DNA of 52,691 nucleotides, from NCBI GenBank assembly GCA_001938485.1, contig MQRK01233167.1:30285-82975 (forward strand), written 5' to 3'. A model generated the notes under the pieces. The model did no database searches, was not told where the DNA came from, and worked only from the letters and a program-made list of their open reading frames with translations. Shown in pieces: positions 12,466 through 52,691 of the stretch. The translations under genes and the position numbers were made by a program. Origin of the DNA: Girardia tigrina (Eukaryota). How positions within the stretch are numbered: the stretch's first letter is position 1; every line of letters begins with the position of its first letter.

Positions 12466-13434
12466 TATTTGATTTTCCTACGACACTTGACTTGTTGTTG
12501 ACCAAACTAGTTCTACCTCAACACTTTATCGCAGCAATAGGGGTCAATGCGGAGAATTTAAACAAACAAATAAACTATACATAAACAGAATCTCTCCTTT
12601 TGGTGAAAAATACAATAATGATAGAGTTTTTCTTAACTTCTATTTTTGTGATTTCTTGTGGAATCCTTGGAACACAGACCAATTTACACAGGGTTTTTGT
12701 ATTGACAGACAGTGCGATTCAGCCATTGAACTAATTTGATGGGTTTAAAATATACAAGTTGTACAAGTCCATTTTGGGAAAATTATTCAAAATACTTATT
12801 ATTTAATCAGAATAATTATCATCTGATAAACAACACACTTCATTCATGAATTTTTATAAAATAATGACAAGTTTAAATTCTACTTTTTGATGATCTAATA
12901 GTCGTCCTAACGTTAAAACGTGAATGATGGGTGATTCCATTTTTTATCACGGTCGATTTTTGGTCTATCAAAATGTGATATTAATATTGATAATTTCAAA
13001 ATTATGTGTAAGCATTTCGATAGTTATTGGGAGAAAGTTCCGTATGAAGGTAACGTTTTGGGTAACGTTCATTGGGTAACGTTTTTCCTATTCAATGTAA
13101 AGGACAGAGTTAACCAGTTTTGTTAGAATTTTCGCGTAGCGTGATTTCATGCACCTGATTACACATTCATAATTTTGTATTTATAAATTCGGATTAATTA
13201 AATAACACTTCAATGAGAGGATAATGACGCGTGTTTCATCAAAATACATTGTTAAAAATTTTTTTTGAAATGGTTGCGCTTTGTTTCTTTTAAATTATAC
13301 AATGCGTTTTTTCAATTGAAATAAAATTTATTTTCCAAATTGTCTAAGGTATATTAATTTATTGAGTTTTGGCAATCACCCAGAATGACACAATCACGGA
13401 TCGACGAAATCTCGAAAGGCGATGTAAGACACTA

Positions 13435-13738
13435 CAGAGATGTCGGAATCATTCTGAATGTTAATACAACTATTGGACATGTTTCAATTTTTAAAAAAAT
13501 CATCATCAGCAATTTTCTATTGAATTGTTTGAATAATACAATCTTTCACAATTTTAATAAATACAATTTACTTTAAATGGTAACGAAGAAATTAAACATT
13601 TTTATTTATCAAAGTATTATTGGGTAATATGGCAAAAGTTTTTTAATTAAAAATTTTAAGTATTGAAATAACCTTACTTTGCCCATTCTGAATGTTAATT
13701 GATGGGTTGTAGTGTCTTAGTGTTCCAGAGATGTCGGA
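13435..13738 (-). mobile_element. Short 5'-truncated PLE insertion (same family as 8347-10200) with 13-bp direct repeats
   Basis: 13642-13720 is nearly identical to 8602-8681 (end of the GIY-YIG ORF). Hammerhead at 13471-13514. CAGAGATGTCGGA at 13435-13447 and 13726-13738. Confidence 0.8.
13471..13514 (-). ncRNA. Minimal type I hammerhead ribozyme
   Basis: Minus strand: AUUG CUGAUGA U GAUUUUU-UU-AAAAAUU GAAA CAUG UC^CAAU. Canonical GUC triplet; stem III ACAUGU. Confidence 0.8.
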
Positions 13739-14269
13739 GAAAAGAAAAAGAAAACAAAAATGATAAATATCGAAATACAAAATATTTCTAATTATTACAA
13801 AACAAATATATTATTAAAAGATGTAATGTTGAGATTATGATCCAAATGTACCTCTACTGTCAAAATCCCGATACGTGAAAACTATGAAGTACCAAAATCT
13901 TGAAAATATGAACAGTTAAATTTAACTCTTTTAGAGCAGTCAGAAATTTTACTATTATTTAATTGAAAATAAAAATCAGATTAAAAGCCCGAATGACAAT
14001 CATTTAATATGTGGTAATTATTTTCTAACTATTGGGTTTTTAATCAAAATACGTTGTCATTAACACAAAACTTTTATTTCTATCAAACAATGATTTTTTA
14101 AACCAATTTCATTTTAGCATAATCAGATATCAAATTTCAAATATAAATATTTATATATAATTTTATGTAATTTAAATGTTACACTTTAAGTATAATAAAT
14201 TATAGCTTTAAATTTTTTTAAGGAAATTAAATCCCAATCTGTTTTTTTATTCTTTCATCATACTTTGGT

Positions 14270-17279: not shown

Positions 17280-20200
17280 CTCTCCATTAGAATTTAGGAT
17301 GCACTTCAACCATTCAATTCTTCTTGGTTTTGGTTTTCCTGGAAAATCAATCAACACTTGATGTGACTTAAAAATTCAAGAATTTGAAAAGGACCATCAT
17401 ATCTGTTTCCATTTTTCTTGATGTTGTGAGGTTCTTTCTTTAATAAAACTTTTTCACCGATCTAAAAATCTCGTTGGTGTCTTCTGCTTGCTTCTAAGTT
17501 TTGAAGTTTGTCTGTTGCCTTTCCTGATTCAAATTTCGTTTCCAAAATTATTCTCTCGTGATCAATACTGCTTGATGATGGTAACCCATTTAAAATAAAT
17601 TTCCTCCCAAATACAATTTCAAACGGTGAACGTTTAGTTGGGCTCTGATATGTTGCGTTTATTGAAAACTCTATTTTTGGAATCATCTTCTCCCACGCTA
17701 TTTTTTCTTTCTTACTCTTCAAAGATGTAACCAACATATCTCGTACAGTTCGAATGGCTCGCTCTGCTAATCCATTTGCTTGATGTTGATACGGAGAAGT
17801 AAATTCTTGTTTAATTTCAAATATTTCTGTTAGTTTCCTTAAAATAGCTCCTTAAAATACTCGGCCTCGGTCTGACAATATAGATTTAGACTTCCGAAAC
17901 TTGTAAATCCAGTGATCTTTTATAGCTTCTGCAACACTCAATTCATCTTGTTTGGTCAAAGGTACAAGACTCACTAGTTTGCTGAAACGGTCTATCATCA
18001 CAAGTAAATATTTGTATCTGGATTTGAATTCTGAGAAGCATGCTACATCAATTATCATTTGTTCCAGCAGACCAAAATCTTCTCGTGGTATCAATAACTA
18101 TTTTTTACACCCCGAATATGTTTTCCTTTTTGCACAAATTTCACATCTCTGTACCATGAGTTCGATAGTTTTGCTCATGTTTGGTCAATGATAGCTTTCC
18201 TGAATATATTCAAGTAACTTTTCTTGCTTCCCAGATGACACAACTCCTCGTGAATATACTGGGTTAACTTATCTGCATAATTTTCTGGGACTAATATCTG
18301 TACTGTCTTTTCATTCTTACTCATAACAATTCCATCTATCAAATCATATTTATCTAAATTCTTGAAATATTTACTTTTCTTCACTTCAATATTTATATTT
18401 TGAGAGGAAGCTCCAAGCCATTGATGTTTTTATTTCAGTATTGAGTCTGACAGTTGTATCGCTCTGATGTCTTCATTGTTCAAATCTCTTGTTTCTATGG
18501 TGTTTATGAACTTTACTTTTAATTTATTTGACTTTGCTCTTTGATAACGTGTTAAATATTGAGTACATAGTTTTTCATCAATTCTTGAAAGTCCATCAGC
18601 ATTAGTATGCTCTTTTCCTTTCCGATATTTCAAAATAAAATTAAAACTAGATAAATTAGCGATCCCTGTCTGGAATTGTGGACTAATAGGCTTGTTGGTT
18701 TTTGTCATGTAAGTTAAAGCTTAATGATCAGTGCGGACTAAAAATTTCTTCCAATAAAGATAATATCTGAAATACATTATAAACTCATGAACCGCCAGCA
18801 ATTCTTTTCTAATTACACAATAACCTTTTTGAGGTCATTTAGAGTTTTAGATGCAAATGCAATGACTTTCTCGTTCCCAATATAATCATTTTGACTCAAA
18901 ACTGCTCCGATAGCTCCAAAACTTGCATCAGTATCTAAAATCATTGGTTTTTCATATCCGGATATGCTAATATTGGAGCTGTTGCCAATTAAATCTTCAA
19001 CTTATTAAAACTCGACTTTCAATCATCCGTCCAGTGATTTTTTTTCTTTTTTTCACTCAGCATAGCATACCACGTGCGGTAATCAATGCATAATCTTTAA
19101 TGAACCTCCGATAATAGTTTGCTAACCCTAAAAATGACATCAGCTGTGTAATACATCCTGGGCTTGGAGCTTGCATAATCTTTTTGATTTTATTATCGTT
19201 CGTTTCAACGCCCTTGTTGCTGATTGTGTGTCCTAAAAACTTTAGTCTTCTGGTTCCAAAAAAACATTTATCTGGGTTCACAATCAAACCAGATTGCTTA
19301 ATTATTGTAAATACTTGTTTTAATATACTTAAATGGTTTTCCTCATTCTTCGCATAAATTAATATATCATCTAAATATACAATAACTCCTTTATAAAGCA
19401 AATCCTTAAACAATAAATTCATAAGGCTCTGGAAAGTTACTGGAGCTGTGCATAATCCAAACGGTAAGCGATTGAAACAAAATTGACCGATTTTAGTACT
19501 AAAAGCTGTTTTTAATTTTGATGCTTCATCCAGTTCCACCTGATAATACGTTTGACCTAAATCAATGGTCGAAAAAATTATTGACCCCCATAATGTAAAT
19601 ATTCGGCACAGGAAATGTAAATTTCTCTGTAACATTATTCAGTCGTCTAAAATCTAAGCACATTCTGATAGATTCATCTTTTTTCGGTACAATAACCAGA
19701 GGAGAATTCTAAGGACTCTAATATGACTTAATAATATTAGCTTTTAATAAATCAACAATCAATTTATCAAACTTATCTTCAAGATGCATGGGCTGGCGTC
19801 TCTGATTTGCAGAAATTGGTGGACCGGTAGTCCGGATTTCATGTTTGATTACCGTTCTGTGGCCTAAAATTGAAGCCAAATTTTGAAGCCATAAAAATTG
19901 ATCCATATTATTTAACAAGTAAAGTTAATGGCAAGTTTGACTTGTCAATTAAACTCCTTAACGCGACAGTAATAAGATCAAGATTATTAAATTTCAATTC
20001 CACATACGAAGTATCTATAGTATTCACTTCTGTTAACCCTATACCACACATTCTCATCATATCGATTCCTCCAATAAATCCAGGATATATATTTCGCACA
20101 ATCACGATTCCTTTTTTCTCCTTTACACCATCCCACAAAATATCAACATATATTTTACCTAAACACATTTCAGGACTTGTAGAAAAGACACTTGAAAGTT

Positions 20201-20640
20201 TAATGTCTGATCTCTGCATATCTGGTCTTCCTATCCGATGGCAGTTATCTCCGCTCATAATTGTGATTGAAGCACCGAAATCCCATAACATTTCAACATT
20301 AATTCCATTACAATTCATCAAACTCCATATTCTACCATTTGCCTTCTGGAACATCCCCTCTTTCATCATTTGTCTCATTCTTTGTCCTCTATCTCTGCCT
20401 TCAATCATATTTCTGACTAAACCCCACCGACGAGATAGGTACGAGGAGTTGATATCGGTTTTTTTCGTCGTTATCTTGTTCAATTTCCTGTGATTTTTCC
20501 TCGATCGGGTCATCAGTTTCATCATCATGAATGTACAATATTCGTCTTGGGGAAATTTGATTTGGTTTTATTGCCAAATAACAAACTTTGAATCTATGAT
20601 CGTGCTTATCGCATATTAAACAACGATTTCACAAGGGACA
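17280..20640 (-). mobile_element. Ty3/Gypsy retrotransposon gag-pol, decayed
   Basis: Domain order: CCHC knuckle (CLICDKHDHRFKVC, ~20582-20625), protease (LWDFGASITI), RT (KTAFST...RLPFGL...VYLDDIL), RNase H (LDTDAS, YRKGKEHTNADGLSR), integrase (HEELCHLG...IDRFSK...SDRG). Many stops and frameshifts. Confidence 0.95.
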
Positions 20641-24815: not shown

Positions 24816-25673
<858 letters not shown>

Positions 25674-25892: not shown

Positions 25893-26353
25893 TGTTTAGA
25901 GAACTCACACATTTGATAGAACATTTATTACATTCACAATTTTGATCATCTCCATGACAATCAATAGTATTGCTCTCATTTAATTCAAGCACTCAATGTT
26001 TAATACTTGTCATCTCAAATCTGAACTAAATTGAAAAGAATTATTTTATTTAAAATATTTACTTTAAATTTTATTGGTTAAAATAAAATTACTTTTTCAT
26101 ATCATTTGAAAACATTAGTTTGGTTTAATTATTTAAAAATTTACAAAAAAAAAGTTTATAAAATTTTTTTAAAAAATTTACAATAATAATAAATTTAAAT
26201 ATTAAATCTAAATTTAAATAAATCAGTTTCAGATTATAAGAGTTAAAATATTGATCATACATCTGATTAGGAGAGGCACAATCCCAAATCAACACACATC
26301 ATTTAAAGTTCCAAACAATACACAAAACAACAACATTCCAAATATTCCTCGCA
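25893..26353 (-). mobile_element. Solo-LTR family A, complete, 5-bp TSD
   Basis: TGTTTAGAG...ATTCCTCGCA flanked by GATAT at 25888-25892 and 26354-26358. Confidence 0.85.
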
Positions 26354-26531
26354 GATATAGAAGAATTATTTTGAATTTAATTTATTAATACAGATTACTC
26401 TTTGAAAAAGAAAAGGTAATACATTCAATGCATATTTAAAAGATGATATTTTTGTATTATTCTTATTGTATTATTCTTCGTGTTTAAATGCAAAAAGTAC
26501 ATGTATTTAATGCTATACTTAAATAACTAGA

Positions 26532-28561: not shown

Positions 28562-28563
28562 TA

Positions 28564-28827
28564 CAGTGCGTTCAGAAAGTCACTGTGCACCTTTCATTGT
28601 CTGGTTTATGTTTAGATAATCAGCGTTGTAGCAGACTTTTTAAATGCAAATTTCTATGAAATCGAACTACGAAATAGATTCGTGAACAAAAAACATACCT
28701 ACACACTTTGACCTTGACACTGAGCGTTTTAAATTTTTTTAAAAAAATATCATTTTGATATTCAATCTAATCATTGACGAAAGTCAATTTATTGCGAAGT
28801 TAATTCCAATTGAAAATGGTTTTGTCA
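28564..28827 (+). mobile_element. 5' end of the mariner-like element seen at 31136
   Basis: TA + CAGTGCGTTCAGAAAGTCACTGTGCAC; nearly identical to 31136-31399; stops just after the transposase ATG. Confidence 0.9.
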
Positions 28828-30443: not shown

Positions 30444-31135
30444 GTACAGTTCGGTGAACCTGTTTAGTACGTCAAAAATAAAATAAAAAATTAACAAATG
30501 TCAAATAAAAAATAACTGTATTGTTAACAAAATATAATTTTTATAACTCTAACCGATACAGGGAACTGTCAATGAAATTTTTGGGATCGTCAAATGTATA
30601 TAGTATAAAAATTCACCGCTTGATATTGTTTGGGATAAAATATAGTTTTTTGCAATGAAATATTGTAGTTGGCTATAAAACGTTATTGTCGTCAAAAATA
30701 AATGATATTGATAGTCAAATATAGTCAGGATGAAAATAAATTAGTGACCAAACATTGTTCGTAACATCAGTAAATCATAGTTTTCAATTGCATTTTCAGT
30801 AGTATATTTTTTTCAGTTTCAATAATAGTAATTAATGGAAATATTCTTTACGACTTTATTTTGAAACAATGATATTGATCATGGAAATCAATATTTCTAT
30901 GGTTAATTTAAATTTAATTTTTATTATAGCTTCGCTATATTAATTTATATATTGTTGTAAATGACCACATTATTTGATTTAGTTTCTTCTCGTTTACAAC
31001 ACAAGTGACACTTAAAAAATAATCACACAGACACTCAACAGTCGTGGAGGTTGTTGACACGACAATAAAAAAATTAAGGCATTCGTCCTTTGAATAAAAA
31101 CTAAAAAATAATAATTGACATAAAATATAAAAATA

Positions 31136-32552
31136 CAGTGCGTTCAGAAAGTCACTGTGCACCTTTCATTGTCTGGTTTATTTTTAGATAATCAGCGTTT
31201 TAGCAGACTTTTTAAATGCAAATTTCTATGAAATCGAACTATGAAATAGATTCGTGAACAAAAAACATACCTACAAACTTTGACCTTGACACTGAGCGTT
31301 TTAAATTTTTTTAAAAAAAATATCATTTTGATATTCAATCTAATATTGACGAAAGTCATTTTATTGCGAAGTTAATTCCAATTGAAAATGGTTTTGTCAA
31401 CGGAGGAGAGAATATTTTTGATTGAACATGTCTTTCGTGCGAATGATGAATACACAGAACCAGTGAAGGAAAAATTTGCTGAAAAGTTTCCGCAACAGCA
31501 ATACCTCATCGAAATGCAGTTCGAGCGTTAGTGAACAAGTTCAGAGAAACTGGATCCGTTCCTGATGCCTCCCACTCAGGTCGACCAACGATTTTAACGG
31601 AGCAAAAAGTCAATGTTATTTCGAAAGCCATGAGCCAGAGTCCAACAATGTCGATGCGCCGTTTATCTCAAGAAGTGAGTGTATCCGTTGAAACTGCACA
31701 TGCCGCCGTGAGGAAAACTTTAAGCTTATATCCATATCGTATTACTTGTCAACATGAGTTGAAAGACACAGACTTTGAAAAGCGACTCCAGTTTTGTCAT
31801 TGGTTCAAGGAAAATCTGAATGAGGATGACATGCTCGACAAGACTTTTTTTCCGATGAAGCGTGGTTTCATTTGTCTGGATATGTGAGTAGCCAAAATTC
31901 TCGAGTTTGGTCCAGTGAAAATCCGCATGAATTTGTTTAGAAGCCTTTGCATTCCTTGAAAGTTGGAGTATGGTGTGCCATGTCCAGGTGGCGTGTAATT
32001 GGTCCCATCTTTTTTACTGAAACCATAACATCAGAAAGGTACTGCAAGGAAATCCTTTCTGCTTTCATCGACCAGTTAAACTAAAGAAGAACGATCGACT
32101 GGCTATTTTCAGCAGGATGGTGCAACAGCACATACCGCAAACATTTCGCTTCGTTCTTTGAATGAGATCTTCCCGAAGAGAATCATTTCCAAAGGAANNN
32201 NNNNNNNNNNNNNNNNNNNNNNNNNNNNNNNNNNNNNNNNNNNNNNNNNNNNNNNNNNNNNNNNNNNNNNNNNNNNNNNNNNNNNNNNNNNNNNNNNNNN
32301 NNNNNNNNNNNNNNNNNNNNNNNNNNNNNNNNNNNNNNNNNNNNNNNNNNNNNNNNNNNNNNNNNNNNNNNNNNNNNNNNNNNNNCAGCAGTTGTTGTGA
32401 CTCTTTTCTTGTTATTTTTAATAAATTAAGAGACGGTCATTGTTCTTCACATAAAATTGACTATTCAAAATATTTTGTTATTAATTTTTAGAACACAGGA
32501 TATCCTTCTTGTTTTGAAATTGCATGTGCACAGTTACTTTTTGAACGCACTG
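31136..32552 (+). mobile_element. Tc1/mariner-superfamily transposon, full length, frameshifted (DUF4817-type N-terminus)
   Basis: 27-bp TIRs CAGTGCGTTCAGAAAGTCACTGTGCAC / GTGCACAGTTACTTTTTGAACGCACTG with TA on both sides. ATG at 31388; KFRETGSV, FSDEAWFHLSG, PLHSLKVGVWCA, FQQDGATAHT. The third catalytic residue lies in the N gap. Confidence 0.93.
32198..32385. other. Assembly gap
   Basis: Run of N. Confidence 1.
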
Positions 32553-32719
32553 TATTATATCTTGTAAATAGTTCGACCTTTATTTGATTCTATGCACTTC
32601 CTGCATTTTTAAGCGCAACAATAATTCCATGCTCAAATTCACTAAATACTCTTGACATTTAATTTATCCTAAATTAAAAAAAAATAAGTCATTAATGAAA
32701 ATTTCAATATTTATGTTTC

Positions 32720-34550
32720 AGTATGATGATGTTTTAATTTACTCAAAATCAATGAAGGTTCATATGAGACTACTAGAAGAAGTACTGAATAGACTGAAGA
32801 AAGCATGTTTAAAAGTCAATCCAGGGAAATGTAAATTCGGACTGGGGGAGCTGGTATTCTTGGGTCATAAAATTAACAAAGAAGGTATCTCAACAAATAA
32901 ATTGAAAGTGGCAGAAATTCAAAAATTTCCTATTCCAAAGTGTACTCAAAATCACGAGCATTTTTGATCTGTGTAACTACTATCGATGATTTATCAAGAA
33001 TTACGCCGAATTAGCAGCACCTTTATACAGTGCATGTAGCGGAAAATGTAAAGAAATGTTTTAGTTAGACAAGTGCGACAGAAGCTTTAATGAATTGAAG
33101 CAAAAGTAGTAGTACGCCAATGTTAGCATTTGTGAACCGGAATAATAATTTCATCTTACACAGATGAATCATTCTGATTGATGGGAGCAGTTCTAAGTCA
33201 GATATCAGAAGAGAAAGAAATAATAATCGCGTATGCATCGAGGACTTTAACCACACTTGAAAAGGGTACTGTGTGACAAGAAAGGAACTATTAGCTTTAC
33301 AAGAGTTCATGTTACATTTCAAGTAATATTTATATGGCAAGCGATTTACAGCAAGAACTGATCATAAAGCACTGGTGTATATGAAGAGTACTTCCAAACC
33401 AGTAACTCCTCAATTCCAGACATAATTAGAAAAAATGGCGGATTTGACTTTGATTTGAGGTATATAAATGGTGACGAACATGGAAATGCAGATGGATTAT
33501 CATGGCTATACGACGACGTTTGTGCACAATGTGAAACAAAACACGAAGAACCAATATCAACAAAAGCAAGGGTGAAACACATCAATACAGTGATGATTCA
33601 GTCTACAATTCAATGGATAAAAGACGAGCAAGTAAAGTGCTCAGAGTTGAACCAGTTGAAACAAATACAGGAGATGGCAGAGGGTGAAAAGAATGAAATC
33701 ATCAAGGATTTATTACAACTAAAGGACCAATTAGTTTATCAGAATAGGTTATGGGATAGGCAAGAAGGAAATTGTGTGTTACCATTGGTTCCGAAGCAAA
33801 TTGAAGAGATTTAATCAGGAAAATACACAGAGATTTGTGTCATGTAAGGACCAAAAAGACAAAGAAGTATGTCTAAAATCATTTTATGCTACCAGATTTA
33901 GCGAAAGAGGTGCAAATCGTTATAGGAGAATATCAGGAATTTATACGCAGAAAAATTCCCAGTGAAAAAGCAAAAGAGAAGTTGATTCCAATCAGAAGTG
34001 ACGAATTTTTAGAGCAAGTCGTGATGGATATCGCAAATGTGGGTGACAAGAATAGTATGTACCCATATCTATTGGTCATGGTGGACCAGTTTTCGAAATT
34101 GGTCTCTTTGACAGAGATTAGAACTCAAAACGAAGACACCATAGTTCAATGCGTGTTGATAAAATGGATATATAGATATGAGAAGCCAAAAACAATATTA
34201 ACAGACAATGGAAAATGTTTTACTGGCGGAAAATTTAGAGATTTTTGCAGGAAATTTGGAATCGAACAAAGATTTAGTAGTCCATTCCAACATAAATCAA
34301 ACGGGTTGGCAGAAAGAACTATTCGAACAGTGAGAGACATGATAGTAACAAGCAGAGGAGACACAGACAAACGATCATTGTGAAAAATTGTTCCGAAGAT
34401 AGAATTCTATCTAAATACAGCAGTTCAGGGTACGACCGGATATTCGCCCTTTGAAGTTGTTTTTGGTAAAAAAATAAACTTACATGCGGCAGCAGTACAT
34501 AAACTTTATTATATCGTGATAAAAAACGATAATAACATTAAAGTTGGGAG
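32720..34550 (+). mobile_element. Ty3/Gypsy pol fragment (RT end, RNase H, integrase), related to 17280-20640
   Basis: DDVLIYS...LKVNPGKC; RTDHKAL; EHGNADGLS; EQVVMDIA...VDQFSK...TDNG...SNGLAERTIRTVRDM. Confidence 0.92.
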
Positions 34551-39122: not shown

Positions 39123-41089
39123 ACATAAATAATGGTGAACCAAATTCCTGAAATTTATACAAAAATTATGAAAATTTTATAATTGCAGTCGCTTGCAATT
39201 AAGAGTGATATTTCAGCTTTCGATAGCGAATTTTATATTGTAAATTCCAATCTCAAAAATAACAGCCAATTAAAACTTAGAAAATATCAAAAAACAAATT
39301 TTTAAAATAGCTCACAGCATTTAAGAGCTGTTTTTAATATGAAAAAATACACATACAATGCATGCATACACAGACCCAAATACAACTTATAGATACCTCA
39401 TACACACCAGATTTGCCAGTTTTTAAGAGTGAAGCCCGACTTTAAGAGTAACAAATTTAAATTTAAAAAAATGATGGCAATTTCCAATTTATCGCCTATT
39501 AGTAGTGCTGATCACATGAAAATAATGTATGTCATTGTTTTCTATGATTTTTATCAAATAATTATTGCATCATATCGGAAGACAGCCAAAAACGGAGCCA
39601 TACCGCATAAAAACTCAAAATTCGTAATTTATGTTTTCATTTTCAAATTTAAAGAATAAAAAATTGCAAAATAAGTAAAATGGATAAATGTGTCAGAGGA
39701 CTGTCTGACACTGGCAAGACAGCTCGTTATCTCCTAATCAGCGGCCAAGAATATCATATTGGTCGGAAAACATGGAGGACATGAAAAATCTATTATTACC
39801 GACGAAATCTGGAAGAATTATTCGAAATATTGAGGAAAACCGCATTCGGGAGAAATGAAACGATATATTGAAGAAAACAACAATATCATCATTCATTACT
39901 GACAAATTAGTAAACCGTTAGGATCAGACCAATGATCCGTCAATGAAAGAAATACAGATCGATATTCACGATTATTGATTGAAGAAACATTTAATCTCTT
40001 ATACTACACGTATTGTAAATAAATATTTAAGAAAAATTTTACTTTTTTGATTTATAAAATCAATTTATCACACTGATTCAGCTAAATCCAAATACGCCAT
40101 TTTTACTTAAATTCTCTTTAACCATTGTTAACCACGTGACACTGCATAATAATTTAAATTTAAAAAAAGCTAAAAATTATACATTGATTTTAAGTCTTTT
40201 TAATAATGTGTGAATACCACATGCTGTATTATTAATACCTTTTGATTAATTTGGTTGGTGCTTTTCATTGCCATCGTCCTGGTGTACGCGTTGTAGTTGT
40301 GTGTGTCGGGCGTATATTGTATATATTCGATTTTGTGATATACTACGAATCTTTATATATATTTGTGTATTTTTTGTGTACCTGGAAAATAATGAAATAG
40401 AAAGCTTTATATGGGCCAGCAAGAAATAAATGTTTTAAAAAATCTCTTCCTCGTCTAAACAGAGAATGTCTTTCTATAAATGAACTAATTATCAAGCATC
40501 TTGAAACAAAACTTCGTACATATACAAAAATATCAATTTTTTTAAAGTTAAGCAATATCAGAGAGAACGAGAGAAATGAGTATCAAACAAATAAAAAAAT
40601 TGATTATTTGTACAAGTTATTCGAAATTGAATGAAGATTATTCAAGATGCAATTAAACTAATGTTTATTAAATTTATTTTATTATGAACATTAAAATAAT
40701 TCTCATTTGAATTTTTATTACTATGACATTTAGAGTCATTAAAACTTAGAAGATCTTTCACTGTTTGACATCGTTCTAATTGGTTTTGTTATTTCTATTT
40801 TTAATCGTTTATTCGAACAATTTTTCTGAATCTTTTTAAAGTATTTAATTTCTAAAAATATTAATTAAAAATAATAATTTAAACCATTTTTTAATAAAAG
40901 CCTAAAATAATAAAAATATTATAAAATTAATAAAAATGAATTTAATTTAAACGTTAGTAAGTTTTTATATATATAATTAAATGCTTTTTTCTTAAAAAAT
41001 ATTAAACTTAATTTTAATTGTTAATTAATTATAAAAATATAAACTTATAAAATTATTTTGATTATTTTCGAATATTCAATCACTTTAAA

Positions 41090-41195
41090 TTAAAAAAAAT
41101 AACAATTTCCATCTGGGTGGGAGAATCACCATTCTAAGTTCAACATACATCATCAATACACTCCCACATTCAAAAACTTTAAAATATTCCTCACA
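41090..41195 (-). repeat. Solo-LTR family A end
   Basis: CCATCTGGGTGGGAGA core and terminal AATATTCCTCACA; other end not located. Confidence 0.65.
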
Positions 41196-43397
41196 TATTT
41201 ATTAATAATTTAATTATAAAAATTCAAAAGAAATCAATAATCACTTAGTGATTATTGAGTCCGTGATTGCGTTTGTTATGTCTTGATAATTTTTACATTT
41301 GAATACGAATATCTTGAATATAACATTGTTCTCATTATTTATTTTGTTTGTTAGTAATATTAATACAAAGTAAGTTTTCTTACATTTCTTACAATATACA
41401 AATTAAAAAATTTCGATAAAGTTCCCTGAAAATAATTTTGACTAAAATAAAGGCCTGAAAGGTTATGAAAATATTAGTTTACGTAAGGCTGTGATAAATA
41501 GTATCCATGTATACTTTTTTTCTGGAGAATTATGTCGAAATAAGTATCATTATTATCTATATGAGGAGTTCGTTATTTTTCCTTTTGCTGATCGAAATTT
41601 AAATAAGTTTAAAACTTAAAGTATGATTTTAAAAAATAAATTTCAAAAAGTAATGGTAGTTTGTAATAATTAAAAAATATTAAACGCTATTTTTCAAAAT
41701 TTATTGTAATTAGTTTCAGCGTATTCCTTAATTACATCCTTTACCTTATATACACATCATTAAACAATTTTTCTGTTTTTTCATTAGTTGAATCTTCTTC
41801 TAAAGCCTTTTTATAAGTAGAGCTTGTATATATACTGAGTGGACATGCTCGAGCTTCGCACCGGGTTTTGATATTTTGAAGAGTTACATCTTTTATCATT
41901 ACATTTTCTTTAGTAATCTAAATAAAATTTTTCCTCATGAAATACAAAGGGTTAATTAGGGTGTAAATAAAAACAAGTAATTCTTCTGAAACTTCAAAAT
42001 TTGGGAAATCGAAAAAGATTTGTGATAAGATTGAGAGATTTGTTGTTGATTCAAATGATGATAGTTGTAATTTGTATGATTCGCCATTTCCGACTAATGC
42101 CAACAAATATGACGGTATATTCTATGCACATTTAAGTGATAAGTGCTTATGCTCTGTCGAGTTTAGGTAATTTTAAATAATTTAAGGTTTAAATAAGTTA
42201 CAAATAAAACAAAATACAACATTTTATTTCGGTAACATTGCTGTTTAATACTTATGAGGAGGTAATTAATTTTTGGTTAGCTGATCAAAATTTAAATAGT
42301 TTTAAAAAGGATTATTTTGAATTAAAATCAAATTGAAAATTTGAAAAGTTAATTGAGTATTGTAGATATGAATTAAAAAACATTCTTTTTTAAAATTTTT
42401 TATTAATGTTTGTTATAATGTATTATCTAATTTTAAATTAATTTAATGATATGATTAAAAAAATCTAATATTTAAAAAATAAAAAATTGAATATTAAATA
42501 TAACGTATTTTCAAAATTTCTAAAATGATAACATATTAAAAATGGTTTAAAAAACAACGCAAAATTAAAAAAAACAGTATATAAGATTTTAGTTGGCAAA
42601 CAAAATTTTAAAAACAGTATGAAACGATTAAAGTAAAAAAATATTTAAACATTAAATATTTTTTTCGAAAAATTTAAAAAAGTTGAATGTTGTTTTTCAT
42701 TTGATTAAAATTATTTAAAAATAGAGATCAGCGGATTAATTATTAATTAAGAAAATAGTTGGAAAATTTGTTTGAAAGTTGTTTTATAATAAAGATATAA
42801 TTTGAGTAAAATGAATTATGATATTGACTTTACAAATACTTATTTAAATGTTGTTAATAAACAGATCACCATTTTTTTAACTGTTGTACGCTACATAAAT
42901 TCAAGGACAAATAAATTTGGAAGGCGGTATTAGTTCAGTGTTAGACTAAATCTCAAGTAACCAGCCACCTCTTTCATTAGAAATTTTTATTTATTCCTTT
43001 CTATTTATAAAAATGGTAGCGATTTACTTCATTCTTCATGACTCCACTGTACATTTTCTAAGTAATCTTATGTGAATCTCCAATTTTAAGATGATCGACT
43101 TGCGGCTTTAACAAAACTTTATTATATTAACACAATGACGAGCTTATTAGGAACGTTAAATTCAACGGGGTGGATGGGCAGGCCTGAGTAGAGTCCTAAT
43201 GCTATAACTTTAATAGCAAACTTCTCTTGAACAGCAGTAATGGGACCACAAATATATATCACAAGAGAAATAAATTACCTTTGATCTACTATTTCAGAAA
43301 TAAATTCGAAACTTTTGAATGTTATGCTATAATATTACAATTTATCAATTTATTTGTTTTTATCATTAAAAATTATTTCAAAGATAATCGTTTACAG

Positions 43398-43952: not shown

Positions 43953-44639
43953 TGGGAATACGAGACTCGTTGTGGTATTATTTATATAAGCAACTTGCGA
44001 AAATTGAGCATTTCTTTCGTTCTCATAAAAATTTTACTGATACAAACTCTGTATGATCGATTACTTTTTTAATGTTTTTTTTGTATTTTTAATATAATTA
44101 TAAACAAAAGATTATTGTTTTCATTATCGTTTTTCAAATGCTTTTTTCGTTGTTGAATTTTTGAAAAATATTTTATTTTATTCAAACATTTATTTTGAAA
44201 TAACTAATTCGCTATTTGTATGTCGAGAATTAGAATTATTAATGACTGCGTCACAAATATGCATCACTTTGCACTTCGATATTGAGTTTTCGATGACTAA
44301 TGAGACTCTTTCGGAAGTGTCTCAATGGCACTTGAAGTGTCAGTATTTACATTAAGTATTTACAGGACGTTCATAATCTATTTCAAGTTATTTTCATTTT
44401 TGTAACTTTCTTGTTTTCCATGTAGATTGAAGACTAAGATATTCCTATTCGACGATAAAAATATACATAAAGTGATACATGTTTTGTCAAATTTGCAACA
44501 TCGTCCTTAAAGGATTCAAAGCTTTAACTATAGGGTGCTTTTTGTGGTACGCGATGTTTTTTGACAAAAGTGAAAAAATGAAATAATTTCATGTTTATTG
44601 ATAAAATGAAGTTCGGATGATTTTTTTATTGAAAACAAA

Positions 44640-45434
44640 ACTCATCCATTAAAAAATATATTTATAGACAATATATTTCGACGGATCAATCGTCATCTTC
44701 AGGTCACTGATTAATAATTAATTCACCTGTATATAAATACAAAAATGGTGATTGTGTAATCGATTACGTGAAATCATGCTAATCAAAAATTCTCAATAAG
44801 CTAGTTGAGACTGCCTATTGAACATTGATTTTAGGACAAGTGACCTAATTAACAATGCTTCACACGACACTCTCCCAATAACTGTCAAACTGCTCACACA
44901 GAATTTTGAAATTATCAATATTAACATCATATTTACATTTTTTCCTATGTTTTGCAATATTATTCTCACTCTCTTTTCGATCATGTTCTTGAATTTTTTT
45001 ACAGAGATGACGGGCAGTCTCTCCAATGTATGTGGCATCGCACCAATTACATATCCATAAACAATATCAGAACACAGTGTTAGAGGTGTAATATATTTAC
45101 TGAAAATATTTTGAGATCGTAATATAATTTTTAAATTTAACTCATTGTTAGTTGCTTTTAACAATGTATTTTTAAAGTTTTTAAATCCTTCAGAATAAGG
45201 TACAATTAAACAATATTTAGGCATGTTATTAATATCTAAAGATCCTTCGATTTCTTTCTTAGATCCATCAGGAGAAGCTTTCGAAATATCTTTTAAAAGT
45301 ATTTCAATCGACAGTCTCAACCAGCTTATTGAGAATTTTTGATTAGCATGATTTCATGCAATCGATTACATAATCATCATTTTTGTACTTATATACAGGT
45401 GAATTGATTATTAATCAGTGACCTGAAGATGATG
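44640..45434 (-). mobile_element. Penelope-like element 3' fragment with inverted terminal repeat
   Basis: Frameshifted GIY-YIG (CNWCDATYIGETARHLCKKIQEH). Arms 44691-44823 and 45302-45434 are inverted repeats. Confidence 0.85.
44667..44705 (-). ncRNA. Minimal type I hammerhead ribozyme
   Basis: Minus strand: GAC CUGAAGA U GACG-AUUGAUC-CGUC GAAA UAUA UU^GUC. Palindromic stem III AUAUAU; short 3-bp stem I. Confidence 0.7.
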
Positions 45435-45439
45435 TTTGT

Positions 45440-46055
45440 TTGTTCATTTGATCAAATTTTTGACTTATGCAATTTGTTTGGTCACTTTGAAAACAATATC
45501 TGGCAAATGGTCACCGCCGGCCGTTATGCACAAATCAGCCTATTTTTCGGTGTTTTCCATCACTTTTTGGAGTTTTTTCTGGCCCAATTCTAGCGATTGC
45601 ATTGCAAATGTTGGTCTCAAGTTGTTGGAGGGATTGCGATTGATTGACATAAACCTTTCGTTTCAAGTAGCCCCACAAAAAAGTCAGGAGCCGTTAAATC
45701 TAGAGAGCGCGGTGACCAGTCAAAATCGTCCTTATTCAACATCAATCTTTGAGGAAATATTTTCTTCAACAAATTAATTGTTTCACCTGATGTATGGTAC
45801 GTCGCATCATCCTGCTAGTACCAATAGTCCTCCAGCTTAGGAGTCGAAAATTCGTGGAGCGTAGCCTGTTGTCGTCTTCGAAGAAGTACGGTCCAATGAT
45901 ACTGTTGCAGCAAACACCGCACCAGACTGTAACTTTTGGTGAATGTAATGGTACTTGAAATATTAATTGTGGATTTTCAGTGGCCCAGTAACGGACATTA
46001 TGCGAATCCACGCTTCAACAAAGCGTGAAACGTACTTCATTCGACATGATTAAAC
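45440..46055 (-). pseudogene. Mariner-like transposase relic
   Basis: NVRYWATENP...PLHSPKVTVWCG...IIGPYFFED and WSPRSLDLTAPDFF (WPPRSPDL-type motif). Confidence 0.85.
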
Positions 46056-47607
46056 ATATTTTTAAAAATTGAATTTATATTTCAAATTCAGTTTAAAACA
46101 AACAAATGAAAAAAATTATATTCGTTTTTAAATATTTAAAAACCTATGATATTTATTTGGAAGACTATACTAATGACTTGGAAATGGTATATTACGATTA
46201 ATTTAAGTGGCGAAAAATGTCTTCATACCCAGTTAACCGGTTAAATAATTATGTAAAACTACTTTTACTAAAGATTATCGTCATCCCAAGACATGTTTCA
46301 ACTCCCGTCTCAGTCGTTACGTAGCTTATAAAATGCCTCCAATAATTTCTTCGAAATATTTCTTCTGATATATACTAAAAAAATATTTATATTTGGAGAG
46401 GTATTGGGCTGGCATAAAAAAATCTATTTAGACATTGAATTTTGTTAAGGTATACGTAGTTTACGAAGAATTACCAAATCGCTGAAATAATTTCTTTTAA
46501 ATAAGTATTCATTTGCTGTTTGTAAATGATATGCAAATTTTCTGTCAAATGGACCTTGTCCTGAAATAGACATTGATCTTTACAAGTAAACGAAATAATA
46601 ATGACCTTCACTAAGTCATTTACGCAACATCAACTGCTTCGCTATCTCCTATACTTTGGAAGAAAAAAATACTTTCTTTTTTTTATGCAAAATAACTTCA
46701 AAATGTTAAATGATATTTTTATATAGGAATTTGTAATTGTTTATATTAGTGATTTTTAAAATTGTGGTGAGGCGTATATCCTTGCCAATGTGGACCCGTC
46801 ACTTATATCGGATCACCGCACATGTGTGAGATGTCCACTGAAGTCGCTAAAATAGTGAAATTATTCGACCAAGAATATGGAGGTAAATTAATGTCTCTAT
46901 GAAATTATCATCCAGTTGATGAAGAAACTTTATGAAATTATAATATTGTTGTGAAATATCAAGAACTTATTTCTTCATCGAACGGTGGGCTGGTTGATAC
47001 AAAGTCGAATCTTGACCGGTTTTTTCTTTCTTTTACGTTATCTAATAATCTTCTTTGTAAGATTAGGCTTGCAAGTTATAGCGTCAATATTTCACATTGT
47101 GGCAAACTCAGTTGATTGTCGAATGAACACTCATCGATAAAATAACACTTTGTCATCAGCAGGCGAATTCCTTGTAAATCCAAAACCTTTAAGTAAAAAA
47201 GTAAATATGAAATTTTATGAAAACTTAAAAATTTAATGAAAATAAATAAATATTTTTAAAAATTGAATTTATATTCATTTCAAATTAAAAAAAATTATAT
47301 TTTTGAAAATCAATTGAAAACTAAAAAAATCAGTTCAAAGTTAAAATGAAAAAAAATATTATTGTTTAAATATTTTAAAAATTATGTTAATGATTTAGAA
47401 AATTATACTAATGGTTTGGAAATGGTAAATGCTGCCTGATCTCTTTTTTTCGATGCATTAATGTCAATCAGAGACGTCTCTTCCATATTTCATGACATGG
47501 ATTTTAAGTGATCAATTTATTAATTTTGATAAATTGATAAACACATTACAGAAATTGAAAAAAAATGGGCAGATTATTAAAATCAAAATTCGAAAGCCAA
47601 TTGAAAA

Positions 47608-47648
47608 TATTTATTAATTTCGACGGTTTAACCGTCATCGTCAGAACA
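47608..47648 (-). ncRNA. Minimal type I hammerhead ribozyme
   Basis: Minus strand: UGUU CUGACGA U GACGGU-UAA-ACCGUC GAAA UUAA UA^AAUA. Stem III palindrome AUUAAU. Confidence 0.8.
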
Positions 47649-48193
47649 AATGATTTTTCAAACGAATTATAGTGCAGTTAATGATTATGCAATCAATACG
47701 TAATCAGTACATCATTTAAAAACTCTCAACAAAGTTGTAGAGAATGCAGTTTGAACGTTAATTTTAGGATCCAAAGATCTTATATATAACGCTTCACATG
47801 TCACTCTCTCCCAATAATTTTTAAATTCAGTGCACAGAATTTTAAAGTGTTGTGAAGTTATATCTCCTTTACAATGTCTTCTATGTCCTGCAATGTTACT
47901 TCCACCTTCATTGCGACTGTGTTCCTGGATTCTCTTACAGAGATGACGTGAAGTCTCCAATGTATGTGGCGTTACACCCATTACATGTATATTGGTAATT
48001 GAGATCCGAACACAATGCCAATGGCGTTGGAGATTTATTGCCAAACATGCTTTCAATTTTCTGTGTCCGGGATATTACTTTTAAACTTATTGCATTATCT
48101 AACGCTTTCAAAATATAATTTTTTAAATGATGTACTGATTATATAATGATTACATAATCATTAGCTGCACTATATTTCGTTTGAAAAATCATT

Positions 48194-48234
48194 TGTTTTG
48201 ACGATGACGGTTAAATCGTCGAAATTAATAAATA
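48194..48234 (+). ncRNA. Minimal hammerhead ribozyme, C3U variant
   Basis: UGUU UUGACGA U GACGGU-UAA-AUCGUC GAAA UUAA UA^AAUA; inverted copy of 47608-47648. Confidence 0.65.
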
Positions 48235-50017
48235 TTTTCAATTGGCTTTCCAATTTTGACATCACAGAAAATTGAATTTATTACAAAAAGAGTTTTATTT
48301 CTTAATTTTATGTTATTCATTATAATTTATGTATTGTAAAATCAAGTGATATATTCAATATACCATACTTACAATTTACTTACAACTTACTTTGTAAATA
48401 TTTTTATTTTACATTTTATCATAAATTGTCGCTTTAAACTTATTAAAGATAAAGAAGACTGAAATAATAGTCACTTGTGACATTTAAGTTAAGGTATGAA
48501 CTATAAGGATTAAGACAAAGGTTCATTATAATAGTTACCCTTACCACTGAAAGTAGCTAGAGATTTTTAAATGATGACATTCTTAACCAGTCTTTATAGT
48601 TGTTGGGCTTAACCAAACACAAAAATATTGAGAATCGCAATTATAATTATTGAGATTAAAAGTTAGTGTTTTATAATTATTTATTAAATAAAGCGTTCAA
48701 TTTGAGTTGTAATAAATTGAAATTATTAATTTTATAAAATAAAAAGTCCATTTAGTCATGAATATTACCACAAGTTTCTAATCTTGATAAAAAAATATTT
48801 ATTTAAAATGAAATAATATATTAAGTAATAGTCTAAAGTTTAGACACATAACAATTAGTTAAACATAATTTTCAGAACATGGAATTTTTTTTAAATATAA
48901 CTACATTAATATGAAAAACATTCGTTAATATCACTGTTTATAGTTCCAGATAAAAGTTGTGGTGCAACCTCTATAAAATTCACCAATAAGTTCGGTATTA
49001 TCTAGATAAGACCACTTTAAAAATAATAAAACGGGAATGTGGTTAACCATAATTGTATAAAATGTAGAAGTTATGGAATGTTCCTGTTGGTGGGGAGCTT
49101 TTTTTAACTGTTCTTGTGCAGATAATTCGCCTGCTCGACCAGTGTCCTCGTCTTCGTCTTTCGATCGATTTGAGTCTGTCTTGAGCCAGTGCGATTTCCG
49201 TCCGCCTTTTTGATCAAAGACAGGTTGCTTTCCGCTGGTTGCTTTTTTGATCAGCATGAAAATTTCGCTGTATGTCGAGATTTTCTGGGATTCCTCCGGC
49301 AAGATTTAAGAGAGATTGACTTCCTACCATTTTGACGGATTGCATGGGGCACCGATTGTGATGTGGAGATAGTCTTTTTGTTGGGCCAACATACGCTTGG
49401 GTGCATTATAATTTTTATTTCTCACAACAATTCATTCTTTTGCAAAAATTGCTCAATCATTTCCTTTTCCTTGTCGCAAACTCAAGTCAGAAAATTTTTT
49501 TTATTTCAAATTTTTGTTACTGTAGTGTCCTGTATTTTTTTATTAAAATTTTATTCAAACTTCATTTAAGAAGTTTCAAAATCGAAATTAATTTCTTATT
49601 AAAATTTTTTTTCTATTTTTTATTCAATTTAAGAAGCTTTAATCGAAGTCAATTTCATTGCCCAAATCACTTAATCATTTTTGTTCTTGTTCCTGATCGT
49701 ATTGCTTTCGCATTTTTTGGTATGCAACAAATCGGATTTATAATTACAAAAAAATTAATTGATTAAAATAGAAAAGAAAACAAGAGACTTTGTTTTAATA
49801 TTCAAACATTAGATAATTTGTTTGTGTGTGTTTTGTAAGAATAAAATTATTTTATCAACAATGACCTTAATTTTTTATCTATATTTAATATTTCTTCCCG
49901 ACGTCGCTCCAAGCCAAGCGACACCTGGGTGAGCTCTCAAGTCATCATTCGGTCGATTTGACGGTTCAACCGTTTTGCATTTTTTGGATCTTGGGGCGAT
50001 ATCTGAGTCCAATAAAA

Positions 50018-50032
50018 TGGTGTCAGAAGTGG
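50018..50032 (+). other. LTR-retrotransposon primer binding site, tRNA-Leu type
   Basis: TGGTGTCAGAAGTGG is complementary to the 3' end of eukaryotic tRNA-Leu(CAA). It lies in a GC-rich relic (49895-50420). Confidence 0.6.
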
Positions 50033-50889
50033 TCCCCATTGCTATTCTGAATTCACCTTCGGCAATGGGCGGTCCGCAACGAACTATCCGATGGCTCACT
50101 CAACAGATGCATCACGTTGCAGCCGCAATGTCCAACCGCATATATCGATCAACCTCCGATAAGAATCTCTTAACAGTGCAACACCCGATCGACCACTTAC
50201 AGAACGAGTCACCCATAGCGACAACAATGCCGATTTCGACAATAAACTCCGGTTGCCACACCAATTCCGTCGAAGTTCTCTCCGATACAGAAACGATCGG
50301 CTCAGATCAGCGATATCAACAGAACTCAGATACTGCGGAATTCTTCATGGGGCACCGACCGTCATCTGCCCTATCGGTCGTCCAGGTGTGTCCATTTGAT
50401 TATTATCCACTTTGTGCAGAAGGCAATATTTTTATGGAACAGAGACATAAATGTTAATTTTTAATTAATTTAAATAATGGATTATTGTTAGATTTTTTTA
50501 CGAGTACATATTTTTGGACTGAAATAAGGAGTGGATGTTTTAATCCTGGGGGTGTACTAAAAAAATAAATCACATGGTATTAATACTTATCGACCTAAAT
50601 ACTCCACCACCATCACCACATCATTCCCCAAATGCAACTACATCTCTATAGTACTCCAGGTTAATCTCAGTATCTCTAAACCAGTCGTCGATGTTGACGC
50701 GCGTATCAGTGACACAATTTTGTCAACATCAGAGGAATACGACTTTCGTATCTGGTTCGTGTGGGGCGCCAAGCCACTCCGCTCACATCTTTCCTCTGCA
50801 GCACATGGCGTGCCTGATCGAGCACGCATCACGGTACACTGCGTCTTGCCGGGCGGTGTCAGTAATGATCCGGATGAACAAGATAGCGA

Positions 50890-51850
50890 CGCGATATTAC
50901 TTTCCACGGCGCCACCTCCGTATTTTCTGGACACAAACAGATCCCCTCAGAGCTGGTTGGATATACTGGAAATGCGGTTTAAAATCCAAAGGATTACAAA
51001 TCAGACCCATGCACTGTGTCTTCTACCACCCGAGTTAATGCAGTCTATTTCGACTCACGCGACAACAATTGGATCAACGGCTAAACCATTTGAAGAGTTG
51101 AAACGCCATATCATCAAATCCTTTCAGACATCACTCGACGAAATTTTCCAACATATTTTCAGTCACAGACTCTTGGCAATCAGAAACCCTCAAGTTTCCT
51201 CACGAAAGTAATCATGGATCTAGAATCGATTCAACCGAACATCACGATAGGTGCAGATAAGGAAGTGCTCAACCGTTTCTTCCTAAGATCCCTTCCACCA
51301 CTAGTACAAGCTGTACTAGCTGACACTTACATCTCCGACCTCAATCAACTGGCAATGATCGCGGATAAAATTATGGCAACGCAAGTTACTCAACCATCCA
51401 CATGTTTTGCAGTCAATACACCAGCAACCCAGTAAACTGTCACCACAACCGATGTAACCAACCAAATCGCAATACTTACATCGCAGATTCAAGCGATAAC
51501 AGCCAATTATTAGCTCTTACTACCGGTAACCGCAGGGAGCACTGTCAACGATAATCACCGACAAACCTCTGCTGGTATCACTCGAAGTTTGGGATCCGAG
51601 CACGAAAATGACAATCCGGATGCACATGGAAAGGTGACTCGTTCGAGTGCGATTTGGATAATATATGCATCTATCACTCTCGTTATGGTGACCAGGCCAA
51701 GCGCTGTGCGCCTGGTTGTTCTTTTCAGTCACTAAAAAACTGAGATCCTCTTCGGTCTACGCAGCCGACATAGAAGACGACAACTATTGCTGCAGTATTT
51801 TTTTGTGTAACTCCACTATCAGCGGTCAAGCTACCTCGTCCACATTTTCG
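50890..51850 (+). pseudogene. Gypsy (CsRn1-like) gag relic with two CHCC fingers and a slippery site
   Basis: PQSWLDILEMRFKIQRIT...PFEELKRHII...FLRSLPPLVQAVL..LAMIADKIM; CWYHSKFGIRARK*QSGC and CIYHSRYGDQAKRCAPGC; A AAA AAC TGA at 51734-51743. Confidence 0.8.
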
Positions 51851-52149
51851 AATTCATAGGTCATCATTTCGTATTCCAGCTCAATAAACATTATTATATG
51901 TATTTATGGCCCCCTAAAATAACGATAAAATTTTTCTTATGATTTAATACTTAAGGTCTATAAATTTCTCAAGGAACAATTAAAAATATCACACAGTATG
52001 CTTCTAAAAATTACAAAATTAAACTTTTTTATTTGAAATTGTAAAAATAAAAAAAATAAAATAGAACGCTTAAATATAACTTGTTAAGTTTAAAAAAATA
52101 TTGGTTGAGTTATGGATAACCTGGATTATTTAGGAGATTAACTTGTTTT

Positions 52150-52557
52150 TGGAATTTCTACCAAATAGCGAATATAATTCGATTGATTCATTTAAACGTT
52201 GCTTCAGAAACTTGGCTGATTATAAAAACATCCGCTTTAAAGTTACTTAGAGAATATCCGAACCATTATTTTGGATTGATTCCGGGTCACAGTAATTGTA
52301 ATTATCAGAAAATGATAGATTTAATTATTGAATGTCTGCAAGAATTTAATATTAATTTTAATATAGATATTGTAGCTTCAACATATAATGGAGCAGCACT
52401 AAGGGTTAAGTATGGAGAAACAATTAATTCATTCAGTCAATTATATTTCAATCATGAAATCCGTTTCGCATTCTGTGTGGCTTTTTGTAAGAAAAACCAA
52501 ATCACCAAGCAAAAATATATAATTCAGGATATACGGGATAACACAGTTTTTATTTGA
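52150..52557 (+). pseudogene. hAT-like transposase relic
   Basis: LQEFNINFNIDIVASTYNGAALRVKYG...QLYFNHEIRFA resembles a degenerate hAT TDGA..M / C.AH segment. Confidence 0.55.
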
Positions 52558-52569
52558 CTTACCTTTCTG

Positions 52570-52609
<40 letters not shown>

Positions 52610-52612
<3 letters not shown>

Positions 52613-52691
52613 TAGCGCTCAAAAATAACCGGACGAAGTGAAAATTGGCTATATCTCTTGAATGGTATTAAATATATTAATGAAATTTTGC
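52610..52691 (+). mobile_element. Left end of a Tc1-like element inserted in (TA)n
   Basis: TA-CAGTAGCGCTCAAAAATAACCGGAC resembles a Tc1 TIR; truncated by the window edge. Confidence 0.5.

Follow-up and report, generated by a model that had tools for sequence, protein, structure and literature searches.

We analyzed a 52,691-nucleotide (nt) stretch of DNA from Girardia tigrina (contig MQRK01233167.1, assembly GCA_001938485.1), hereafter called the window, and centered the analysis on a cassette at 47.5 kb that, as judged from its sequence, is the tail end of a Penelope-like element (PLE) with a C-terminal endonuclease. The window is AT-rich, with a GC content of 19 to 45% per 2 kb (mostly 20 to 33%), and contains N gaps. 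The cassette has two inverted arms of 140 nt each (47583-47722 and 48120-48259), which share 94% identity (E value, 5e-57) and differ by 9 substitutions and 0 gaps; apart from this and a second PLE cassette, the next-longest inverted pair in the segment from 44000 to 52691 measures 42 nt at 71% identity. The PLE fragment corresponds to the final ~140 of ~840 codons (the last sixth) of a Penelope-like open reading frame (ORF) together with a pseudo-long terminal repeat (pLTR), and it is endonuclease-only, without the reverse transcriptase (RT). A direct repeat of 17 and 18 nt (47543-47559 and 48259-48276), with one mismatch and one indel between its copies, flanks the whole. The individual features, in window coordinates, are as follows.

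47543..47559: left copy of the direct repeat, resembling a target site duplication (TSD); positions 47549-47559 also continue the frame of the ORF start (codons 27 to 30)
47549..47582, minus strand: one-sided 34-nt tail past the inverted arm, covering approximately codons 20 to 30 of the next ORF start
47583..47722, minus strand: left arm, a direct pLTR with the last 8 coding nt, the stop codon (47714-47712), untranslated region (UTR), hammerhead, and ~19 first ORF codons
47608..47648, minus strand: minimal type-I hammerhead motif with an intact core, predicted cut after 47612
47712..48129, minus strand: 5'-truncated ORF end with part of the RT-endonuclease linker and a GIY-YIG endonuclease with CCHH motif, frameshifted
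48120..48129: inversion junction, 7 to 10 nt shared between the beginning of the right arm and the in-frame minus-strand linker codons H-L-K, likely microhomology
48120..48259, plus strand: right arm, an inverted, tail-less pLTR copy
48194..48234, plus strand: degenerate hammerhead motif carrying the C3U substitution (48198) as well as a C-to-U change in stem II; misfolding is predicted
48259..48276: right-hand copy of the direct repeat; it adjoins the right arm without intervening nucleotides and probably represents the original target

The initial annotation had described the locus as a 5'-inverted Penelope-like copy with pLTR hammerheads, built of ~140-bp inverted arms around a GIY-YIG-only fragment. 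All of this was borne out: the locus contains a truncated ORF end, two opposed pLTRs, and a hammerhead motif in each arm, and the minus strand from 48129 to 47712 matches residues 702 to 841 of an 841-amino-acid (aa) relative, P0284, in two frames. The reading frame breaks just after YIG, near 47958, where there is a 2-nt deletion relative to the related locus L001. This frameshift and the missing N terminus ruled out a functional endonuclease gene. The nearest proteins are 65 to 73% identical (4 matches among 10 candidates); Pfam detected GIY-YIG in 3 and RVT_1 in 2 of these 4, and a Pfam search of the cassette fragment itself returned no match. Among the best 150 matches of the P0003 search there were many relatives of 800 to 840 aa, and relatives of this size (~800 to 840 aa) carry the DKG motif. 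The fragment shows CNGC before YIG, two histidines, and additionally R, E, and N. The locus thus displays the traits of an endonuclease-positive PLE with C-terminal endonuclease, namely, (i) the C-terminal GIY-YIG of an RT-endonuclease ORF, (ii) the endonuclease motifs, and (iii) a pLTR with a hammerhead and the first ORF codons. The definition of the endonuclease motifs and the use of linker zinc fingers as a criterion for PLE clades were taken from PMC8557442 (statements on published systems refer here and below to excerpts of the papers cited), according to which a CX2-5CxxC zinc-finger-like motif is present in the RT-endonuclease linker of Neptune and Nematis. An approximate search for a C..C..C linker pattern found it in 1 of the 84 relatives with delimitable linkers and in none of the 12 closest shown. 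Lacking the Neptune/Nematis linker finger, the cassette lineage probably falls toward Penelope/Poseidon, to which this pattern points. The ten nearest clusters of relatives carried no element names.

The identity of the arms follows from the hammerhead itself. Its A9, the extra U, and G10.1 form an ATG at 47638 on the minus strand, which opens a 30-codon frame. The encoded peptide best matched the N termini of P0302 and P0284 (scores of 54 and 50; next score, 29) among 51 relatives of at least 790 aa, and 0 of 5,000 shuffles in each case reached these scores. Because the ATG in the hammerhead opens a frame that matches the N termini of relatives, we consider the arms to be pLTRs composed of the UTR, the ribozyme, and the start of the next tandem copy. 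The predicted cut lies 27 nt downstream of the ORF start; in the Poseidon element PAc of Anolis carolinensis, the ORF starts at stem II and the cut is 26 nt downstream (Frangieh et al., PMC11167929). The right arm is tail-less and ends at codon 19, whereas the left end of the element runs on to codon 30 (47549) through the one-sided, 34-nt minus-strand tail; one-sided PLE tails of 30 to 40 bp were described by Craig et al. (PMC8557442).

The tail and the flanking repeat overlap. Tail and left repeat copy together read LPIFFQFL, compared with LPLFFKFL and LPLFFSYL in relatives (FQFL versus FKFL of P0284 and FSYL of P0302). Of the random window positions, 71 of 103,300 scored as well as the last four tail residues, and 690 of 103,318 scored as well as the last three. 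Since 11 of its 17 nt continue the reading frame of the element, the left repeat copy is likely part of the element's tail. The repeat as such was matched by 0.3% of 5,000 composition-matched pairs when anchored at the end of the right arm and by 11% when unanchored. The TSD-like flank claimed in the initial annotation therefore stands as a direct repeat at that place, but its left copy is not clean host sequence, since 47559-47549 continue the frame of the element. On sequence grounds, a target duplication similar in sequence to the tail is the best reading of the repeat.

Taken together, these data make it very probable that the 47.5-kb cassette is a one-off, dead PLE insertion in which a 5'-truncated fragment is joined to an inverted second copy of its own end. 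It was likely made in one insertion event and has likely been inert since, and it is likely an ordinary, known kind of PLE debris in a new copy and not a new mobile element. Signs of decay are 9 differences over the 140 bases of the arms, one of them in the ribozyme core, and a frameshift in the ORF. The 5' end of PLEs is "often" adjoined by an inverted 5'-truncated copy (PMC8557442), and PLE copies of Adineta have flanking inverted pLTRs, 9- to 10-bp TSDs, a 31-bp one-sided tail, and a 15-bp overlap (PMC3846280). In the mechanism that we propose, the RT-endonuclease of the parent element would have cut the target on both strands, and each 3' end would have primed reverse transcription on the element RNA. 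The left end would have started at a distal site, tail included and ~90 nt into the ORF start, and run for ~580 nt, whereas the right end would have started at a proximal site (~56 nt in) and run for ~140 nt. The two cDNA ends, complementary over 7 to 10 nt, would then have annealed and been filled in by repair. The two hammerheads would be passengers of the duplicated pLTR, in which the motif normally overlaps the start codon of the tandem copy that follows.

At the junction between body and right arm, homology to relatives extends 10 nt into the right arm and then stops. Positions 48129-48121 encode H-L-K, which aligns in register with HLK, HFK, QFK, KFK, and similar residues in relatives, and 911 of 103,324 random positions scored as well against the 9 homologous columns. 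Seven to 10 nt at the junction therefore likely belong to both sides, and an overlap of this length fits priming from both target ends followed by annealing of two cDNAs. PAc cuts and extends both strands, and its RT starts at two sites that bound the tail (PMC11167929); 5' inversions of L1 are explained by twin priming, in which two cDNAs anneal at short complementarity (PMC2912911).

At least five further PLE remnants were found in the window, and some of them offer inverted junctions for comparison. A second cassette, of another subfamily, spans 44633-45438, with arms at 44687-44822 and 45303-45438 that differ at 11 of 136 positions (92% identity), a hammerhead at 44702 on the minus strand, and an endonuclease fragment interrupted by stop codons. 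The short arm of this cassette begins ~41 nt ahead of the stop codon (the distance is 8 nt in the 47.5-kb cassette) and ends inside the hammerhead. A TSD search around this cassette (44687-45438) turned up nothing but a repeat of 10 nt that lies ~48 nt away from the end of the arm; it was rejected, and the cassette has no clear TSD. A third inverted junction, at 7611-7829 (stretch 7599-7829), joins an 82-nt 3' end through an 18-nt filler to a piece of the endonuclease region that runs into an N gap. This stretch abuts a (TA)n run. Its truncation point and that of the 47.5-kb cassette are ~4 codons apart (SEGF motif), which may mark an RT pause site or be due to chance. The related contig JACCDN010023602.1 (L002) is 97.6 to 99.2% identical to 7611-7829, so the subfamily of the third junction is young. 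At the 5' end of L002, 24 nt are inverted from its own endonuclease region and overlap its RT frame by 6 nt, which read F-V as in L001; L001 has no inversion.

The overlap at the 47.5-kb junction could also have come about in another way. The same dead insertion may have formed by fold-back, in which a cDNA stalled at 48129, paired its 3' end with 47713-47722, and copied itself back to 47583; we regard this as possible, though not the likelier course of events. When the 410-nt body is compared with the reverse-complemented 3' end, the decamer at the junction is the sole 10-nt match (1 of 161), in part by construction; Arkhipova et al. proposed self-priming as the origin of inverted repeats in PLEs (PMC3846280), and the ends of the short arms vary between the two cassettes. 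Fold-back leaves two features less well accounted for: the arm lacks the last 34 nt of the tail, a length equal to that published for the tail bounded by two RT start sites, and it is immediately followed by the target repeat, at a point where fold-back gives no reason to stop. Within the dead-insertion reading we lean modestly toward two-ended priming, fold-back being a variant that takes the smaller part, somewhat under half, of the weight given to that reading.

The inverted junctions differ in 4 of 4 cases, three in the window and one in L002. Different breakpoints in related copies, which the initial annotation had named as a finding that would speak against a mobile unit, were thus observed; the copies represent three subfamilies, however, with no sibling of the 47.5-kb copy among them. 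The idea under scrutiny was that the cassette is a nonautonomous, RT-less, self-cleaving unit copied whole by an intact partner. Besides the differing junctions, several searches bear on it. No second copy of the cassette was found in the window. A scan of metagenome_contigs with the ribozyme pattern gave 0 matches, as did a scan of genome_contigs (prokaryote genomes) with the junction, both being weak nulls, as these collections may not hold this organism. The out-of-frame N terminus of the frameshifted ORF was shared by 0 of 2 near-length protein matches, again a weak null. Scans for related loci retained 2 of 87 candidates in metagenome_contigs, 0 of 19 in genome_contigs, and 0 of 27 in viral_contigs. 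Two of 24 listed sequencing runs shared 55 to 59% of the words of 44300-49300 and 18 had small shares, figures that are not evidence of copy number, expression, or habitat. In favor of a unit of this kind are the pLTR sequence at both ends and the flanking target-like repeat, the finding that pLTRs suffice for mobilization in trans in Adineta (PMC3846280), and the existence of PLE derivatives of that sort, such as Chlamys MRC1 (PMC8557442) and tandem retrozymes (10.64898/2026.07.22.740005). Against it, in addition to the results above, known retrozymes are arranged head-to-tail (10.64898/2026.07.22.740005), and unit-length transcripts are predicted not to form the ribozyme fold (see below), so that we deem a nonautonomous unit improbable. 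The narrower possibility of a non-LTR (long terminal repeat) retrozyme was rejected, since this class requires two or more consecutive head-to-tail units, each with a complete hammerhead on the same strand, and the cassette has one motif per strand, inverted, one of them with C3U.

Hammerheads were identified with our own descriptor for minimal motifs, which allowed C or U at position 3. It gave 5 matches in the window, compared with 1 in total over 20 shuffled windows, and all 5 lie in or beside PLE remnants. The two in the cassette are at 47608-47648 (minus) and 48194-48234 (plus) and are predicted to be cut after AUA at 47612 and 48230, respectively. The hammerhead numbering agrees with the core consensus in PMC7151607. 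The minus-strand motif has C3 at 47644, an extra U after A9, a 6-bp stem II, the palindromic AUUAAU at helix III, and a 4-bp stem I. Measured against a minimal type-I core (CUGANGA-N, GAAA, and UH, with stems I and II and a palindromic helix III), this copy has every element, whereas the plus-strand copy lacks C3. The latter combines U3 with G8 and is the only one without C3 among the 7 aligned motifs from the window, L001, and L002. In folding predictions of the motif alone, the stem II probability was 0.98 to 0.99 for the minus copy and 0.001 for the plus copy. The isolated 76-nt motifs had folding z-scores of -1.2 and -2.2, which are unremarkable and neither support nor refute hammerheads, because minimal hammerheads are not stable monomers. 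Rfam detected no hammerhead in the window at the gathering score, and at E values up to 10 it returned 8 weak matches in 47500-48350, none of them a hammerhead; the motif call therefore rests on our descriptor and on the published features of minimal hammerheads.

The initial annotation had further placed a full hammerhead in each arm, proposed that transcripts from either strand could fold into a long duplex, and suggested that the unit could be self-cleaving. Both motifs lie at exactly the proposed coordinates and the minus core is intact, but the plus copy carries C3U and is predicted to lose stem II. The duplex was recovered, as a read-through transcript is predicted to pair 132 to 135 of the 140 arm positions at -275 to -285 kcal/mol. 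Self-cleavage fared worse. The stem II probability of the sense ribozyme was predicted to be 0.000 in whole-cassette transcripts of both strands, because the antisense arm, which precedes it in the transcript, pairs with it, and hairpin and ribozyme are thus predicted to exclude each other. In addition, the cassette has one hammerhead per strand and the plus copy has C3U. Minimal PLE hammerheads need a second copy on the same strand, having cleaved weakly and only as dimers (PMC4209133) or only with protein (PMC11167929).

A predicted duplex of ~135 bp in the read-through transcript would also be expected of a retained hairpin-RNA locus that yields small interfering or PIWI-interacting RNAs against its own PLE family, and PLE copies give rise to antisense small RNAs in Adineta (PMC3846280). 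Such a locus is very unlikely here, as the arms have decayed by 6.4% and those of the neighboring cassette by 8.1% (11/136), as expected without selection, and incidental small RNAs would not constitute a system. Junction microhomology is also typical of amplification chimeras, and the assembly is of a scaffolded short-read type with N gaps beside (TA)n runs, so that a fold-back artefact of assembly or amplification was considered. The arms differ at 9 positions and in their outer ends, so that neither is an in vitro copy of the other, and a direct repeat flanks them; we consider such an artefact most unlikely, and an assembly chimera was rejected because the arms have diverged.

Several observations weigh against a one-off dead insertion made by two-ended priming. 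(i) The 18-nt filler in place of an overlap at 7693-7710, and the short arm at 45303-45438, whose end falls within the hammerhead rather than at a definite start site, fit two-ended priming less well. (ii) The direct repeat of 17 to 18 nt is longer than the 8- to 10-bp TSDs of rotifer Penelopes (PMC3846280). (iii) The apparent overlap at the junction and the apparent extension of the tail are drawn from relatives that are ~70% identical at the protein level and not from parent DNA, with chance expectations of 0.9% and 0.07 to 0.7%, respectively. (iv) No sibling of the exact subfamily was found in the collections scanned, which may not include this organism, so that "one-off" is inferred and not counted. 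(v) Rare natural hammerheads with U3-G8 are slower but presumably active (PMC7151607), and C3U alone is therefore no proof of lost activity. (vi) As a further point against loss of the ribozyme, a transcript that starts inside one arm and runs outward would leave the left ribozyme free.

The overlap of tail and target suggests a mechanistic lead. The target may have resembled the tail, so that at the distal site one cut end was paired with the RNA and the other end was primed at the proximal site. We hold it to be doubtful that such tail-target pairing is a general rule of how PLEs choose and prime targets, but, if true, it could account at once for the inverted ends, the microsatellite bias, and the tail on one side; the origin of the inverted ends and one-sided tails of PLEs is still described as undefined in PMC8557442. 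As a system, the cassette is of little weight, being a known by-product of Penelope-like retrotransposition, and its small value is mechanistic: it keeps both ends, the junction overlap, and a tail-like target, and counts in a stub-rich genome would separate two-ended priming from fold-back and would also test tail-target pairing. In Schistosoma, dual minimal hammerheads are found ~100 to 700 bp apart on opposite strands (PMC4209133), and opposite-strand hammerhead pairs should be read as a marker of PLE stubs.

The window contains three other PLE copies. A longer, decayed copy of the L002 subfamily (8315-9651, minus strand; 85% identical) has an RT part with stop codons, an open endonuclease frame of 159 codons, and a hammerhead at 8471, and it ends in a (TA)n tract beside an N gap. 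In L002 (1836-1925) and at 7599-7617 and 8315-8349 of the window, the tail frame ends in N-I-Y codons, an AT-alternating run that in both copies of the window passes into (TA)n tracts and may link the tail to microsatellite targeting. A short 3' fragment of the same subfamily (13422-13740), with a hammerhead at 13509 on the minus strand, is flanked by a 13-nt direct repeat; on its left side two pieces of its own 5' end are repeated, one of 12 nt in inverted and one of 16 nt in direct orientation, forming a complex junction. A decayed, noninverted 3' fragment at 12971-13286 (plus strand) is 71% identical to the cassette at 44.6 to 45.4 kb and has lost the ribozyme core.

The window also has features other than PLE copies. 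Just left of the 47.5-kb cassette lies an unrelated, diverged direct repeat (46056-46192 and 47297-47430; ~76 to 79% identity, ~1.24 kb apart). A dispersed, AT-rich, noncoding repeat family (3167-3466, 4463-4731, 7011-7467, 25893-26354, and 40985-41204) occurs in both orientations at 70 to 84% identity and gave no PLE protein match. Decayed Gypsy-type LTR retrotransposon remnants with RVT_1 and rve matches are found at 17462-20567 and 32656-34383, and there is a 97% direct repeat at 28562-28827 and 31134-31399. An exon of a proteasome alpha-type subunit (24939-25673, plus strand; 244 open codons) is 54 to 67% identical to the 120 relatives listed, among which the named ones with the best ranks come from flatworms, annelids, molluscs, and insects; as judged from this protein, the host is likely a divergent animal and seems to lack a close relative in the protein collection. 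A bacterial promoter scan, not applicable to a eukaryote, found 7 promoters where 7.1 were expected, which is chance level.

In comparison with known systems, the cassette most resembles other PLE debris. It shares with the Pen2 and Pen2a_Av derivatives (PMC3846280, PMC8557442) a truncated ORF end with pLTR, an adjacent inverted pLTR, a one-sided tail of 30 to 40 nt, a short overlap at the inverted junction, a flanking direct repeat, and a pLTR that includes the first ORF codons. Unlike in these Adineta elements (8 to 10 bp), the flanking repeat is 17 to 18 nt long and overlaps the tail, and the junction is likely a microhomology between linker and stop-codon region, whereas that of Pen2/Pen2a_Av is a palindrome between two adjacent pLTRs (PMC3846280). 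With Cercyon of Schistosoma mansoni (PMC4209133) it has in common a minimal type-I pair on opposite strands (554 nt between core positions in the cassette), the extra base after A9, a 4-bp stem I, and a palindromic helix III; it differs in a stem II of 6 bp instead of 7 to 8 bp and in an uncompensated C3U, where Cercyon has a covariant U3-A8. As in PAc (PMC11167929), the start codon lies at the start of stem II, the cut is 26 to 27 nt downstream, and the tail is bounded by two positions inside the ORF start. The start sites of PAc, however, are 111 to 118 nt into the ORF, compared with ends ~56 and ~90 nt in for the cassette, and initiation of PAc is reported to be nonhomologous to the cut DNA, whereas the target repeat of the cassette overlaps the tail. 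Non-LTR retrozymes (10.64898/2026.07.22.740005) likewise consist of protein-less sequence derived from PLE pLTRs with type-I hammerheads, but they are head-to-tail with ribozymes on the same strand, while the cassette is inverted, with one ribozyme per strand and an ORF remnant. Finally, 5'-inverted L1 copies (PMC2912911) share the likely use of two primings and the annealing of two cDNAs at microhomology; the second priming of L1 is internal and leaves no duplicated terminal arms, whereas both ends of the cassette are the 3' end of the element.

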